DNA of 64,000 bases from Escherichia coli (GTDB taxonomy: Bacteria > Pseudomonadota > Gammaproteobacteria > Enterobacterales > Enterobacteriaceae). The translations under genes were made by a program, and so were the position numbers. Shown here in pieces: positions 1-46,662 of this stretch. Every line of letters starts with the position of its first letter. The first letter of the stretch is position 1. A model generated the notes under the pieces. The model saw only the letters and a list, made by a program, of their open reading frames with translations, searched no databases and was not told where the DNA came from. The stretch lies in NCBI RefSeq assembly GCF_003334385.1, contig NZ_QOWN01000013.1; one strand, written 5' to 3'.

Positions 1-182
1 CAGAACGGCTATTCCATTCGAAGGTGAGCGCCATAATGCACTTGATGACGCCCGTTACCAGGCAAAATACGTTTCAGCTATCTGGCAAAAACTGATCCCA
101 AATCAGGCTGATTTTTAATGTTCAACCCCGGTCGTTGCCCACCAGCTATAGTGGCGGCGACCATGATTAGCGAACGACGCTC

Positions 183-431
183 ATGGCAAGACTTATTCTG
201 CTCACTGAGTGGGCAAAAGAGGAATTCAGTGAACCGGTCCCTACTCCGAGTACGTTAAGTAAATACGCTAAAGCCGGAATGATATTTCCTCTCCCCAAAA
301 AAGTTGGAAGACGCTGGCGAGTGGATCCGCAAGCTCGCTTTGTCGGAATGGTAAACAAGCCGGAGGTGATCGCCACAGATCACCCTGCTTTGAAGAGGAT
401 ACTGGAAGATGGCGCGCCCGCGAAAATATAA
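183..431 (+). CDS. Excisionase-like small DNA-binding protein (Xis family)
   Basis: 82-aa ORF directly upstream of and overlapping the integrase start. It is basic, with an LTEWA...IFPLPKKVGRRW motif resembling lambda Xis (LTLQEW...IFPPPVKDGRE). Confidence 0.55.
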   Translation: MARLILLTEWAKEEFSEPVPTPSTLSKYAKAGMIFPLPKKVGRRWRVDPQARFVGMVNKPEVIATDHPALKRILEDGAPAKI

Positions 432-1539
432 AACCGATGTTCCGGGATTATCTCCGTATTTTGACAAAAGAAATAACAAAGTTTACTGGCGTTACAGGCA
501 TCCCATAACAGGCAAAAATCACGGTCTCGGCAGTATTGACCAGAAACTGGCAGAAACTATTGCAGCAGAAGCGAACAGCCGTCTTGCCCGGCAGCAAATG
601 GAACAAATGCTCAGTCTGCAGGAGAAAATTATTAGTGATACCGGCGGTTCATCAACCGTTACCATTTTTCTGAATAATTACAGAAAAATTCAACAGGAAA
701 GATATGAAAACGGCGAGATCAAACTCAACACGCTGAAACAGAAAGCGGCCCCTCTCAGGGTATTTGATGAACGTTTTGGCACCAGACCGTTAGATGCCAT
801 AACCGTAAAAGATGTGGTATCAGTACTGGAAGAGTACAAGGCCAGAGGACATAACAGAATGGGACAAATTTTCAGGAAAGTACTGATCGATGTTTTCCGG
901 GAAGCTCAGCAAACGGGCGATGTCCCGCCAGGCTTTAACCCTGCAGAATCGGCAAAAAAACCGCAGGTGCGGATATCAAGACAGCGACTGACTTTTGATG
1001 AGTGGATGATGATTTATAACGCAGCGGAAAAGAATGGTTACTTTTTACAGCGCGGTATGCTGCTGGCACTGATGACAGGCCAGCGCCTTTCAGATATTTG
1101 CAAAATGCAATTTTCGGATATCCGGGATGGTTATCTTCATGTCGAACAGCAAAAAACAGGAACCCGGATTGCCATCCCTCTGGCTCTGCGTTGCGATAAA
1201 TTAAATCTCACCCTGGATGATGTAGTGTCATCCTGCCGCGATTGCGTTCTTAGTCCGTGGCTATTGCACCACCATCACGCGAAAGGGACAGCTAAGCGCG
1301 GCGGGATGGTTAAGCCAGCAACATTAACCGTTGCATTTAAAAAAGCCCGGGATTCTGTGGATTACAACTGGCGTGCTAATGGCACCCCACCCTCTTTCCA
1401 TGAGCAGAGATCTTTATCAGAGCGATTGTTCAGAGAGCAGGGGGTTGATACCAAAATTTTGCTAGGCCATTCGAATCAAAAAATGACCGATATTTACAAC
1501 GATGTACGCGGTAAGGAGTGGAAAAAACTGGTCATTTGA
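409..1539 (+). CDS. int: Phage-type tyrosine integrase (lambda Int family)
   Basis: 376-aa ORF whose C-terminal catalytic region reads ...GQRLSDICKMQFSDIRDGYLHVEQQKTGTRIAIP...HEQRSLSERLF...LLGHSNQKMTDIYNDVRGKEW, collinear with lambda Int (R-K-H-R-H-Y signature region). Confidence 0.85.
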   Translation: MARPRKYKTDVPGLSPYFDKRNNKVYWRYRHPITGKNHGLGSIDQKLAETIAAEANSRLARQQMEQMLSLQEKIISDTGGSSTVTIFLNNYRKIQQERYENGEIKLNTLKQKAAPLRVFDERFGTRPLDAITVKDVVSVLEEYKARGHNRMGQIFRKVLIDVFREAQQTGDVPPGFNPAESAKKPQVRISRQRLTFDEWMMIYNAAEKNGYFLQRGMLLALMTGQRLSDICKMQFSDIRDGYLHVEQQKTGTRIAIPLALRCDKLNLTLDDVVSSCRDCVLSPWLLHHHHAKGTAKRGGMVKPATLTVAFKKARDSVDYNWRANGTPPSFHEQRSLSERLFREQGVDTKILLGHSNQKMTDIYNDVRGKEWKKLVI

Positions 1540-1545
1540 TGACCA

Positions 1546-1579
1546 GTTTTGCAGAAGAGTTTTGCAGAGGTTTTGCAGA
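1546..1579. repeat. Three direct repeats of GTTTTGCAGA (1546-1555, 1559-1568, 1570-1579) between the int stop and the ompW stop
   Basis: Seen directly in the sequence. Their position next to the int 3' end matches where arm-type Int-binding sites sit in lambda attP (P' arm). Confidence 0.45.
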
Positions 1580-1584
1580 GAAAA

Positions 1585-2238
1585 TTAAAAACGATATCCT
1601 GCCGAGAACATAAACACCCACGGGTCAAGGCGTACATTGTCGCTATAACTGCCTTTAGCCAGTTTACGACCATCAGATTTATACTTCGCGGTGGTATCGA
1701 TATCCATGTACCACACTGACATGTTAACCAACCAGTCACGGTTAATCAGATAATCAACCCCCACCTGCCCGGCAGCTCCCCAGGAATCTTTCAGACTGAG
1801 ATCGGAAAGCCCTGCCTCTTTGCCATGATCGTTAAATCCATTATCAAAGAAGGTGGTGTAGTTAATACCTGCCCCAACGTAAGGACGGAATTTGCTGCTG
1901 GCATCACCAAAATACCACTGCGCCATCAGTGTTGGTGGCAGATGATGAACGGTTGCAATATCGCCGGTCGCCCGGGTGCCGATTTTATGGCGGAACGGCG
2001 TCGCTGCCAGTAATTCCACACCAATGTTGTCGGTCGCCATATAAGTAAACGTAAGGCCCAGTTGCGTGTTATTGGTCACGCTGAATCCACCCAGACTTCC
2101 TAACGTACCACCAGCACCTTCTGTTGGACGTACGGTTGCAGAACCTGCACGCATAAAAAATTCGCCTGCTTCATGCGCAAAGGCACTGCCAGAGAGAAGA
2201 GTTGTTACTGCCAAAGCCGCCACTGTTAACTTTTTCAT
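1585..2238 (-). CDS. ompW: Outer membrane protein W
   Basis: 217-aa ORF with signal peptide MKKLTVAALAVTTLLSGSAFA and OMP C-terminus ...FSAGYRF, in conserved synteny with yciCBA-tonB. Confidence 0.93.
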   Translation of the reverse strand: MKKLTVAALAVTTLLSGSAFAHEAGEFFMRAGSATVRPTEGAGGTLGSLGGFSVTNNTQLGLTFTYMATDNIGVELLAATPFRHKIGTRATGDIATVHHLPPTLMAQWYFGDASSKFRPYVGAGINYTTFFDNGFNDHGKEAGLSDLSLKDSWGAAGQVGVDYLINRDWLVNMSVWYMDIDTTAKYKSDGRKLAKGSYSDNVRLDPWVFMFSAGYRF

Positions 2239-15076: not shown

Positions 15077-15813
15077 TGTTTTTTGGACTCCCTCATTATA
15101 ATTACTGGTATTAACCAGCATGTGTAATCCCGGATTGGGACCCTGCACAGGCTCGGAGACTTTCTGCTGTCAGGTTACTTTATCGTTACGTATTACTATC
15201 ACCGACTTTATTTATTCTGGTGATTCAGACGATCACCTTATGTCGATTCGTACTGTGTCTCCCCTGTCGAGACACATTATTCTTTCGCGACGCTCTTTAA
15301 TTGTTAATTATTCTCATTACCAATAAAGAATCGTCTGGCGGTTGCCCGGAAAGTACCAAATGCGGTTCTTACTCGCCAATACATTTTGCAAAATTGTTAA
15401 GCAATTCTCTTTTATTGACCGTATCAGAATCTATAGCTTGCATCCATGCCTTAACAAACATCTTTCAATTCAATCAAATAGAGATTGGCTAAGCATGTCT
15501 ATCTTTTCTGATTACAGTTCCAGTAGTGAAATGCACAATAATTTAACAATTGATTATTATTTAGCACTTTCCTCTACCAAAGGCAGTGGAATTACTAATA
15601 TCATTTCAATTATTCTTCAGCAAGCCCAGGATTATGATGTGGCGAAAATAACATGATGGTGAGGAGAAGCAGTTAAGGAAATCCTTATAACTAACTGTAA
15701 TTTGAGAAGAATATTTTTACCTATTCCTTTTGCTTTTGATAACTGCGCGGGAACAAAGTAAAAATAATGACGAAGTAAACGGAGCATGGCAGCTCCGTTT
15801 CATTTGAAAGGAA

Positions 15814-43503: not shown

Positions 43504-44604
43504 ATGTCAAATGCTCAAGAGGCGGTAAAAACCCGCCACAAGGAGACTTCGCTTATTTTCCCGGTTCTGGCGCTGGTAGTGCTGTTCCTGTGGGGAAGCA
43601 GCCAGACACTACCAGTGGTCATTGCCATCAATCTTCTTGCGCTTATTGGTATTTTAAGTAGCGCCTTTAGTGTTGTCCGTCATGCGGACGTATTAGCCCA
43701 TCGCCTGGGAGAACCTTACGGTTCGCTTATTCTTAGCCTTTCAGTGGTTATTCTTGAAGTCAGTTTGATTTCAGCTTTAATGGCAACCGGCGACGCCGCG
43801 CCAACGCTAATGCGTGATACGCTCTATTCAATCATTATGATTGTTACCGGTGGGCTGGTTGGCTTTTCATTATTGTTGGGCGGTCGTAAGTTTGCCACCC
43901 AATATATGAATCTGTTTGGTATCAAGCAGTATTTAATTGCGCTGTTCCCCCTGGCGATAATCGTACTGGTATTTCCAATGGCTCTGCCTGCGGCGAATTT
44001 TTCAACCGGTCAGGCGTTACTGGTAGCATTAATTTCTGCGGCAATGTATGGCGTATTTTTGCTGATCCAGACCAAAACGCATCAAAGTTTGTTTGTCTAC
44101 GAGCACGAAGATGACAGTGATGATGACGACCCGCATCACGGTAAACCGTCTGCCCATAGCAGCCTGTGGCATGCTATCTGGTTGATTATCCATCTGATTG
44201 CCGTTATTGCGGTGACCAAAATGAACGCCAGCTCGCTGGAGACATTGCTCGACAGCATGAATGCCCCTGTCGCCTTTACTGGCTTCCTGGTGGCACTGTT
44301 GATTCTGTCGCCGGAAGGTTTAGGTGCATTAAAAGCAGTGTTGAACAACCAGGTTCAGCGCGCGATGAATCTGTTCTTTGGTTCAGTGTTAGCAACCATT
44401 TCGCTTACCGTACCTGTCGTCACGCTAATTGCCTTTATGACGGGTAACGAATTGCAGTTTGCACTTGGTGCGCCAGAAATGGTGGTGATGGTGGCCTCTT
44501 TAGTGCTGTGCCATATCTCCTTCTCCACCGGACGTACTAACGTGCTCAATGGCGCAGCGCATCTGGCACTGTTTGCCGCCTATTTGATGACGATATTTGC
44601 CTGA
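43504..44604 (+). CDS. chaA: Ca2+/H+ (Na+/H+) antiporter ChaA
   Basis: 366 aa from MSNAQEAVKTRHK; multi-TM with acidic loop (EHEDDSDDDDPHHG). Confidence 0.92.
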   Translation: MSNAQEAVKTRHKETSLIFPVLALVVLFLWGSSQTLPVVIAINLLALIGILSSAFSVVRHADVLAHRLGEPYGSLILSLSVVILEVSLISALMATGDAAPTLMRDTLYSIIMIVTGGLVGFSLLLGGRKFATQYMNLFGIKQYLIALFPLAIIVLVFPMALPAANFSTGQALLVALISAAMYGVFLLIQTKTHQSLFVYEHEDDSDDDDPHHGKPSAHSSLWHAIWLIIHLIAVIAVTKMNASSLETLLDSMNAPVAFTGFLVALLILSPEGLGALKAVLNNQVQRAMNLFFGSVLATISLTVPVVTLIAFMTGNELQFALGAPEMVVMVASLVLCHISFSTGRTNVLNGAAHLALFAAYLMTIFA

Positions 44605-44889
44605 CAGTTATATCTCCTCCGATGACGGTAATCGGGGGAGATAATATAAATTCCTGCTTATTGTATTTCTTCATACTACCTGGACAGGTCGTTAATCAGA
44701 ATTGCGAGCCTGTACCACACCCTGCACGAAACCACTGCAACAGCTGTTGAAAAGCCGGAATGTACTCTTCATTGCAAACATTTCAGGGATGAAGTGAAGA
44801 TGAATTGCGACGTAGTATCCACACCAAGCCGGCGTTATCCGGTGAGGCGCAATGTTGCGGGGCTTTATCCCTGGTGGCATTGGTTGCTG

Positions 44890-44959
44890 GAAAGAGAAAC
44901 CCCCCGCACGTTGAGAGGTAAAACCTGACAACAAAACGGGGGCTAATCTTGAAACCAGA
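44890..44959 (-). ncRNA. rdl: Rdl antisense RNA (type I antitoxin), copy 1; coordinates approximate
   Basis: Minus-strand sequence GUCUGGUUUCAAGAUUAGCCCCCGUUUUGUUGUCAGG...CGUGCGGGGGGUUUCUCUUU ends in a hairpin plus U-run and has a TTGTAA-17-TATTCT promoter upstream. Matches my recollection of Rdl RNA. Confidence 0.5.
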
Positions 44960-45006
44960 CACTTCAAGAATAGCCGCAAAATGTTGTCATTACAACAAGG
45001 CGGCTA

Positions 45007-45114
45007 TATGACGCTCGCGCAGTTTGCCATGATTTTCTGGCACGACCTGGCAGCACCGATCCTAGCGGGAATTATTACCGCAGCGATTGTCAGCTGGTGG
45101 CGTAACCGGAAGTA
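45007..45114 (+). CDS. ldr: Ldr type I toxin peptide (35 aa), copy 1
   Basis: MTLAQFAMIFWHDLAAPILAGIITAAIVSWWRNRK, followed by a rho-independent terminator (GGCCGCAGGggtaacagCCTGCGGCC + T-run). Confidence 0.85.
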
Positions 45115-45425
45115 AGGTGAAAACGGGCGTCAGGCTGCCGTGATGGCAATATGCGCCCGAAACCGGCCGCAGGGGTAACAGCCTGCGGCCATTTTTGTCT
45201 TTATCTCTTCCACAAGTAAATATTGGCAACCCGAGCTGGAAGCATCATCCAGAGCACTCATGAAACGACTGCAACAGCTGTTGAAAAGCCGGAATGTACT
45301 CTTTATTGCAAACATTTCAGGGATGAAGTGAAGATGAATTGAGACGTAGTATCCACACCAAGCCGGAATTATCCGGTGAGGCGCAATGTTGCGGGGGCTT
45401 TATCCCTGGTGGCATTGGTTGCTGG

Positions 45426-45495
45426 AAAGAGAAAACCCCCGCACGTTGAGAGGTAAAACCTGACAACAGAACGGGGGCTAATCTTGAAACCAGAC
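45426..45495 (-). ncRNA. rdl: Rdl antisense RNA, copy 2; coordinates approximate
   Basis: Same arrangement as copy 1, with a few substitutions. Confidence 0.5.
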
Positions 45496-45542
45496 ACTTC
45501 AAGAATAGCCGCAAAATGTTGTCATTACAACAAGGCGGCTAT

Positions 45543-45650
45543 ATGACGCTCGCGCAGTTTGCCATGATTTTCTGGCACGACCTGGCAGCACCGATCCTAG
45601 CGGGAATTATTACCGCAGCGATTGTCAGCTGGTGGCGTAACCGGAAGTAA
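45543..45650 (+). CDS. ldr: Ldr type I toxin peptide (35 aa), copy 2
   Basis: Peptide identical to copy 1; terminator hairpin downstream. Confidence 0.85.
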   Translation: MTLAQFAMIFWHDLAAPILAGIITAAIVSWWRNRK

Positions 45651-45798
45651 GGTGAAAACGGGCGTCAGGCTGCCGTGATGGCAATATGCGCCCGAAACCG
45701 GCCGCAGGGGTAACAGCCTGCGGCCTTTTTTGTATCCGGCACCCATGAAAAAAGTCTTAACGCAGAACGCTAATACTTTATTTTTCAAGCAAAAAAGA

Positions 45799-46662
<864 letters not shown>

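Follow-up and report, generated by a model that had tools for sequence, protein, structure and literature searches.

The interval between the genes chaA and kdsA in the analysed window, a stretch of 64,000 nt of Escherichia coli DNA (contig NZ_QOWN01000013.1), was confirmed to contain an LDR array of two tandem ldr/rdl type I toxin–antitoxin modules. The module adjacent to kdsA is a hybrid of two units of strain K-12, and the two-unit state probably arose from a K-12-like array of the order C-B-A by one unequal exchange, the modules presumably operating according to the Ldr/Rdl scheme. The array is an ordinary polymorphism of a known system. The units LDR-A, LDR-B and LDR-C of K-12, located at 27.4 min between kdsA and chaA, were described by Kawano et al. 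(2002), as cited in PMC4147584 and PMC7232551, and the ldr/rdl system, its tandem layout and its lineage-specific duplication and loss are already known from the same work, as cited, and from PMC2887945. New in the present analysis are the frequencies of arrays with different numbers of units and the multiple recombination joints found on one haplotype.

The left flank of the array is represented by chaA, encoding the Na+/K+:H+ antiporter (43504..44604, plus strand), the reading frame of which ends at 44604 and the start of which was placed from the 1101-nt coding sequence of K-12; the final 936 nt show 100% identity to chaA of K-12. The right flank is represented by kdsA (45799..46653, minus strand), a reading frame of 284 aa, and 996 nt on this side are 100% identical to K-12. 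Between these genes the repeat finder detected direct repeats at 44859-45158 and 45394-45693, with 99% identity over 300 nt and a spacing of 535 nt, and a more variable 5' part of 205 nt at 44658-44862 and 45192-45396, with 81% identity and a spacing of 534 nt. The LDR repeats are characterized by a length of about 500-535 bp, tandem arrangement and location between chaA and kdsA, and all these features were found here, with two units and a period of 535 bp (534 bp upstream of an indel) in place of the unit size of about 536 bp given in the preliminary description. The repeat finder, Pfam and Rfam agree on the two LDR units that had been proposed for this interval.

From the repeat families and site-by-site typing, the core of unit 1 (44725..45190, plus strand) belongs to the LDR-C type of K-12. 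Unit 2 (45259..45725, plus strand), typed by diagnostic sites, combines a 5' part of LDR-B with the coding and 3' part of LDR-A. The spacer between the units (45191..45258) shows weak similarity to the segment 44658-44724 upstream of unit 1. Pairwise alignment of the two cores revealed seven substitutions and one 1-nt indel, all of them upstream of 44935, while the tract 44935-45190 (256 nt, from -73 to +182 relative to the ATG), which includes the toxin genes, has no differences between the units.

Both units contain the 35-codon reading frame MTLAQFAMIFWHDLAAPILAGIITAAIVSWWRNRK, located on the plus strand at 45008..45115 in unit 1 and at 45543..45650 in unit 2 (35 aa and a stop codon). The two genes are identical in DNA and protein, and the peptide is identical to LdrA and LdrC of K-12. 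It matches the Pfam family PF13940 (Ldr_toxin) over its full length (1-35 of 35; E-value 1.8e-24, 85.9 bits), and thus the identical 35-aa Ldr toxin expected in each unit was found. The search of NCBIfam with the 35-aa peptides gave no matches, which is read as a gap in that library because the Pfam match is strong. The features of the Fst/Ldr superfamily, namely a transmembrane helix with the motif PXXXG followed by conserved tryptophan and a charged C-terminus (PMC7472228), are present in the translation as P17-I-L-A-G21, W30-W31 and R32-N-R-K35. Ldr is a single-pass peptide of the inner membrane; on its overproduction, ATP synthesis is inhibited, the nucleoid becomes condensed, and the cells are killed or arrested (PMC12643268, PMC7472228, PMC4147584); toxicity on overproduction and its counteraction by Rdl are known for LdrD and LdrA (PMC4147584, PMC12643268). 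No phenotype of deletion is known for the Ldr family (PMC7472228).

Intrinsic terminators of the ldr mRNAs were found by the terminator scan at 45165..45197 for unit 1, where a stem of 9 bp with 8 G-C pairs is followed by ATTTTTGT, and at 45700..45732 for unit 2, both on the plus strand; the hairpins themselves occupy 45165-45190 and 45700-45725. The scan yielded 7 sites against 1.2 expected, and both the ldr and the Rdl RNAs are closed by terminators. The scan for consensus promoters with a threshold of 9/12 positions called no promoter, and the position of the ldr promoter was not located by it.

Genes of the antisense RNA are represented by full-length matches to the Rfam family RF01813 (rdlD; gathering score 50) on the minus strand, at 44895..44960 in unit 1 (Rdl1; 84.3 bits, E-value 4e-17) and at 45430..45495 in unit 2 (Rdl2; 91.4 bits, E-value 6e-19). 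Both matches span the positions from -113 to -48 relative to the ATG, that is, they lie over the 5' leader and leave the start codon uncovered, in agreement with the initial view that an antisense Rdl covers each ldr leader. Rdl2 is identical to K-12 RdlB in all 66 nt. Rdl1 corresponds to K-12 RdlC with the substitution U61G, which alters the last pair of the stem and shortens the U-run of the terminator; two non-canonical pairs are flagged in its Rfam alignment. The stems of the Rdl terminators end near 44899 and 45435. Of the 5,397 records that match, only 7 have the C allele at 44900, which corresponds to nt 61 of Rdl1; since these seven other genomes belong to different haplotypes, the change 44900 A>C is a rare real allele and not an obvious error.

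A plausible promoter of Rdl1 was recognized by eye on the minus strand at 44967..44995, with 8 of 12 consensus positions, under the threshold of the scan. It consists of the -35 element TTGTAA (44995-44990), a spacer of 17 nt and the -10 element TATTCT (44972-44967), and it ends 6 nt ahead of the 5' end of Rdl; the same elements are present 535 nt downstream. The leaders contain short reading frames with an ATG, one of 20 aa (44852-44914) and one of 25 aa (45386-45463), as candidates for ldrX. Because of the 1-nt indel, the leader reading frames of the two units are in different frames, and those of the K-12 units C and B, which carry the same indel, differ likewise. Judged from these reading frames, the difference would not fit easily with a conserved LdrX peptide. 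On the plus strand, matches to the Rfam family 'sok' of 25-29 bits were obtained, below the gathering score of 59, and the identity of these segments as sok was rejected.

According to the scheme adopted here, each unit would be transcribed rightward into an mRNA with a long leader, encoding the 35-aa membrane toxin Ldr, and leftward into the Rdl RNA of about 66 nt, from a promoter situated between leader and start codon. Rdl, complementary throughout to the segment from -113 to -48 of its mRNA, would prevent translation of Ldr by pairing. From the literature, Rdl may act by blocking the leader reading frame ldrX in the manner of hok/sok, and the duplex may be cleaved by RNase III. Rdl overlaps the leader rather than the ribosome-binding site (PMC4147584); a hok/sok-like scheme with translation of ldr coupled to ldrX was proposed by Gerdes and Wagner and, as presented in PMC4147584, was unconfirmed in 2014. 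The duplex of ldrD and rdlD cut by RNase III was captured in vivo, and a stable ldr mRNA and an unstable Rdl were reported for the same pair (PMC7373196).

Among known systems, the module ldrD/rdlD (LDR-D) belongs to the same Pfam and Rfam families and has the antisense RNA over the 5' leader with the start codon uncovered (PMC4147584), but it is a single unit at another locus, on the bcsG side, with about 81% DNA identity to the units of the window. The measurements of toxicity, RNA half-lives and cleavage by RNase III come from the D module, with toxicity measured for LdrA as well, and not from leader/Rdl pairs of types B and C such as those of the window. The proposed analogue hok/sok, of plasmid R1 and chromosomal, is similar in its long leader, in the antisense RNA placed off the ribosome-binding site of the toxin and in the leader reading frame, mok corresponding to ldrX (PMC4147584); its toxin family, Hok_Gef, is unrelated to Ldr, and Pfam gave Ldr_toxin alone and no Hok_Gef for the 35-aa peptides, which do not belong to hok/sok. 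The ibs/sib systems, like the LDR array, comprise small toxins and cis-antisense RNAs in tandem in one intergenic region (PMC2887945). The Fst/Ldr superfamily signature is common to the Ldr of the window and to Fst of the system Fst/RNA II (par of pAD1) (PMC7472228), but antitoxins of Fst use the 3' end and direct repeats for pairing, and the regulation is distinct (PMC7472228, PMC2887945).

Few differences between the units had been noted, some of them inside the Rdl/leader duplex, and these were found at 44900 (C in unit 1, A in unit 2) and 44934 (A in unit 1, G in unit 2). The further proposal that such differences affect the specificity of pairing between the copies was not borne out. Rdl1 and Rdl2 differ at 2 of 66 nt: nt 27 is located where the RNA is unpaired, between two helices, and nt 61 belongs to the last stem pair, at the start of the U-run, while the 5' tail (nt 1-16) and the apical loop are identical. 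Cross pairs are complementary at 64 of 66 positions, and one mismatch of Rdl1 with the mRNA of unit 2 is a G-U pair. Energies predicted for the cognate duplexes amount to -133.5 and -133.8 kcal/mol and those for the cross-duplexes to -127.2 and -123.1 kcal/mol; the latter hold 92-95% of the cognate stability. Because only two positions differ, outside the likely sites of nucleation, and the cross-duplexes are nearly as stable, copy-specific pairing is unsupported, and on the basis of these predictions the two Rdl RNAs should cross-repress both mRNAs.

It is accordingly highly unlikely that the differences create two insulated Rdl/ldr circuits, as in Sib/ibs. Discrimination between near-identical cis-antisense RNAs is documented for Sib/Ibs, where Sib RNAs distinguish their targets by defined recognition domains (PMC2943612), and two of the eight differences between the units fall in the 66-nt duplex; however, they miss the 5' tail and the apical loop, the variant of nt 61 is a rare allele of seven genomes and not a conserved determinant, and Rdl2 is the RdlB of K-12, from which K-12 RdlC is just 1 nt away. 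RdlA of K-12 is distinguished from RdlB and RdlC by four positions of the 5' tail and one of the loop; discrimination, if there is any among the Rdl RNAs, would belong to the A type, lost here. If these differences of RdlA do discriminate, as in Sib/Ibs, three-unit strains would have two insulated circuits and the strain of the window one. With a circuit shared through cross-repression, the reduction of the array would mean a lower dose of essentially one circuit, with its specificity unchanged.

Comparison with K-12 revealed the composition of the two units. In MG1655, ldrA/rdlA, ldrB/rdlB and ldrC/rdlC are located between kdsA and chaA, in the order ldrC-ldrB-ldrA from the chaA side, and the three copies ascribed to K-12 at this locus are thus present. 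Over 32.9 kb outside repeats, 11 substitutions and 1 indel separate the window from MG1655, and 1 kb on either side of the array is identical; the strain is a very close relative of K-12, yet not K-12. The insertion IS5U of MG1655 is absent from the window, and a third tRNA-Tyr gene is present. In a ranking with the 20-kb query, strain 5735 appeared as the nearest relative, but this ranking favours two-unit genomes by construction, and the candidate was rejected: in repeat-free flanks MG1655 is closer (11 substitutions and 1 indel) than strain 5735 (about 41 substitutions and 1 indel).

Unit 1 is identical to K-12 LDR-C except for 44900 A>C and 45064 G>A. Unit 2 has the LDR-B allele at all 16 sites diagnostic for B against A from -336 to -46, covering the promoter, leader and Rdl, and the LDR-A allele at all four diagnostic sites +25, +44, +84 and +183, together with the flank on the kdsA side. 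B-type alleles extend as far as site 45497 (-46), and those of the A type begin at site 45568 (+25); the single switch thus lies in the interval 45498..45567 (plus strand), the 70 nt of which are identical in all unit types. Judging by the arrangement of the diagnostic sites, such a single-switch B/A hybrid is the probable footprint of in-register loss of one 535-bp period. The array therefore shares with LDR-A/B/C of K-12 the locus, the flanks, the 535-bp period and the toxin (LdrA/LdrC), but it has two units in place of three, unit 2 is a B/A hybrid, and the A-type leader with RdlA and the LdrB peptide variant (I9T, S29G) are absent. Further differences from the K-12 array are the private synonymous codon CTA, carried by both toxin genes, and the rare U61G of Rdl1.

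The near-identity of the flanks to MG1655 makes a K-12-like three-unit parent plausible. In an ancestral array of the order C-B-A, units B and A would have undergone a single in-register exchange by unequal homologous recombination within the identical segment 45498-45567. Lost with the 535 bp would be the leader and antitoxin of the RdlA type, the sole divergent one, and the variant peptide LdrB. Gene conversion would later have carried a synonymous change, G>A in Leu19, between the units, leaving 256 nt identical. The array of the window is derived and not ancestral in this scheme because the A-type leader adjoins kdsA both in K-12 and in the distant O157:H7.

The opposite direction, with the two-unit array older on this haplotype and the third unit of K-12 gained by duplication, is most improbable. 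K-12 units C and B are separated by only about 13 sites of the 466-nt core and A is more divergent, which suggests a C/B duplication in the history of E. coli, and the array of O157:H7 consists of two units; however, the kdsA-side unit of the window is without the A-type leader found there in K-12 and O157:H7, and deriving K-12 B and A from unit 2 requires, with flanks diverged by 0.03%, at least 16 substitutions over about 300 nt, whereas a single exchange from C-B-A accounts for every site. The two units of O157:H7, with the A-type leader adjoining kdsA, are built differently from those of the window, and judging by this comparison the class of two-unit arrays appears to be heterogeneous.

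Unequal recombination or collapse of repeats in the assembly had been put forward as the origin of the reduced array, and the single-switch LDR-B/LDR-A hybrid supports an origin of this kind. A real deletion is strongly favoured over assembly collapse, although both would leave the same sequence. In the case of an artefact, a true C-B-A array would have had B and A collapsed via the identical 70 nt, by the assembler or in a reference-guided step, and the coding regions would have been homogenised by polishing; this is rather unlikely. The collapse, or a path of the assembler jumping from B to A, leaves exactly the same single-switch hybrid. The RefSeq genomes GM4792 and CP010445, labelled K-12 and carrying the MG1655 allele at every flank site that distinguishes MG1655 from the window, have two units with differing joints, which indicates that laboratory loss of units or assembly collapse does occur. 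The one-unit array of NRG857c was noticed earlier and ascribed by its authors to an assembly error of the same type (PMC7232551). Against the artefact, B and A alleles are not intermixed in the hybrid, which is clean, whereas polishing with mixed reads would more likely give majority alleles; unit 2 retains the B-specific minority alleles at -238 and -175/-174, which also argue against unit 2 as a simple majority consensus of collapsed units, and this variant was rejected, though a jump of the path in the assembly graph would be compatible with these alleles. The population frequency of reduced arrays favours real deletion, as arrays of one and two units prove to be a normal natural state.

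The number of units was determined in 5,426 complete E. coli genomes with queries that included 1-kb flanks, and genomes covered at 80% or more were counted. One or two units were found in 2,835 genomes (2,830 with the 20-kb query) and up to three units in 5,143. A synthetic one-unit query and the two-unit query gave one and the same set of 2,835 genomes; the former has no one-unit specificity because the search joins two pieces from two-unit genomes, and the inter-unit spacer 45191..45258 was hence used as a junction probe, which detected two or more units in 4,086 of the 5,426 genomes. About 13 records that match solely via ldrD-like sequence (80-90% identity) were counted as lacking the array. 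Accordingly, one unit is estimated for about 1,330 genomes (about 24.5%), two units for about 1,500 (about 28%), three units for 2,308 (42.5%), and four or more units or an otherwise rearranged array for about 270 (about 5%); these are classes of BLAST coverage and not annotations of each genome, and arrays interrupted by IS elements blur them by perhaps 1-2%. Evenly spaced samples of the ranking (7, 9 and 13 of 30 rows) are consistent with the estimates, as is a second evenly spaced sample, with one unit in 10 of 40 rows and two units in 11 of 40.

The possibility that two copies are the standard state, considered in the preliminary description, thus holds in part: two units are one of three common states (about 28%) but not the standard one, three units being found in 42.5%. 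As a common natural variant, the two-unit array is ordinary rather than notable.

In both toxin genes Leu19 is encoded by CTA and not by CTG (45062-45064 and 45597-45599, with the changed bases at 45064 and 45599). An exact match to the CTA-bearing segment of 76 nt was found in none of the 5,426 complete genomes, the best match having one mismatch. In the metagenome scan CTA also had no matches, but the common CTG control had just 4, and the comparison is thus powerless. The presence of CTA in both copies, inside the 256-nt tract without differences, most simply suggests recent gene conversion, as judged from the alignment of the units. Alternatively, the codon could have been shared through homogenisation by polishing with multi-mapping reads, and its occurrence in both copies and nowhere else among these genomes is a point in favour of the assembly artefact considered above.

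Five or more array architectures were found among genomes of one K-12-like haplotype, in which the 1-kb flanks on both sides are the same. Strain 5735 and GM4792 carry C and a B/A hybrid with the joint between +84 and +183; in PSJ-23 the B/A joint lies between +25 and +44; in CP010445 a C/B hybrid precedes an intact A; and CFSAN061761 has a single C/A unit. Different joints with identical flanks indicate that the exchange was repeated on one haplotype. Insertions of IS150 in the array arise during evolution experiments (PMC5419217). It may tentatively be supposed, though with considerable doubt, that the LDR array between chaA and kdsA is a locus of fast turnover, at which recombination alters the dose and the number of independent circuits; under this reading the private CTA shared by the copies would capture concerted evolution in progress.

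The biological import of the two-unit array is small, as the system is known and the variant ordinary. Since arrays of one and two units are common (about 24.5% and 28%), assembly error is not to be presumed for them, in contrast to the guess made for NRG857c. Studies of copy number or expression at chaA-kdsA need reads that span the entire array. The units recombine at many points, and the K-12 labels ldrA, ldrB and ldrC are therefore unreliable in other strains: the kdsA-side gene of the window has a leader and an antitoxin of the B type and a toxin of the A/C type.

Two RefSeq assemblies labelled as K-12, GM4792 (CP011342.2) and CP010445.1, contain only two LDR units each. Their flanks are identical to those of MG1655 at all sites separating MG1655 from the window, and the hybrid joints of the two arrays differ: GM4792 carries an LDR-C unit followed by a B/A hybrid, while CP010445.1 carries a C/B hybrid followed by LDR-A. 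Either a unit was deleted from them in the laboratory, or the assemblies collapsed the arrays.

In unit 1 of the window, the substitution A>C at position 44900 corresponds to U61G in the antisense RNA Rdl1 (44895-44960, minus strand), breaking the last pair of the stem and leaving UUU in place of UUUU as the U-run of the terminator. The C allele was found in only 7 of the 5,397 matching records. HUE1, the sole carrier whose flanks were compared, has clearly divergent flanks; STEC276 encodes the same non-K-12 variant of the ChaA protein.

Upstream reading frames are represented by ATG-initiated leader ORFs of 20 aa in unit 1 (44852-44914) and 25 aa in unit 2 (45386-45463). A 1-nt G indel near 44858 puts the two in different frames, and it also sets LDR-C of K-12 apart from LDR-B and LDR-A. 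This frame difference bears on the unconfirmed model in which translation of a leader ORF, ldrX, is coupled to that of ldr. Each ldr start is also preceded, at a distance of 27 nt, by an in-frame ATG codon (44981 and 45516); initiation there would yield an N-terminally extended product of 44 aa (MLSLQQGGY-). These codons fall in the spacer separating the -10 and -35 boxes of the Rdl promoter assigned by eye (minus strand).

Insertions of IS150 and IS200C within or beside the LDR array are recurrent in natural genomes, including STEC276 and ETEC4067. In evolution experiments, IS150 insertions were reported at chaA/ldrC and ldrC/ldrB (PMC5419217).

A second tandem copy-number polymorphism within the window, besides the LDR array, is the tRNA-Tyr/RtT array. 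Three tRNA-Tyr(GTA) genes in tandem, with a period of 294 bp, and five RtT repeats are located at 27437-28643, whereas K-12 MG1655 contains two tRNA-Tyr genes, tyrT and tyrV, at the same site. Strain 5735 also has two tRNA genes, yet six RtT repeats.

At the window edge, ORFs for an excisionase-like protein of 82 aa and a tyrosine-integrase-like protein of 376 aa (183-1539) adjoin ompW (1585-2238, minus strand). Window positions 1-1582 gave no match to the yciE side of K-12, and this part of the window resembles one end of an integrated element missing at the same site in K-12. IS5U of MG1655 (1,195 bp, ychE-oppA interval) is missing from the window at 15561-15564, where the two window/MG1655 alignment blocks share 4 bp, as many as IS5 duplicates at its target.
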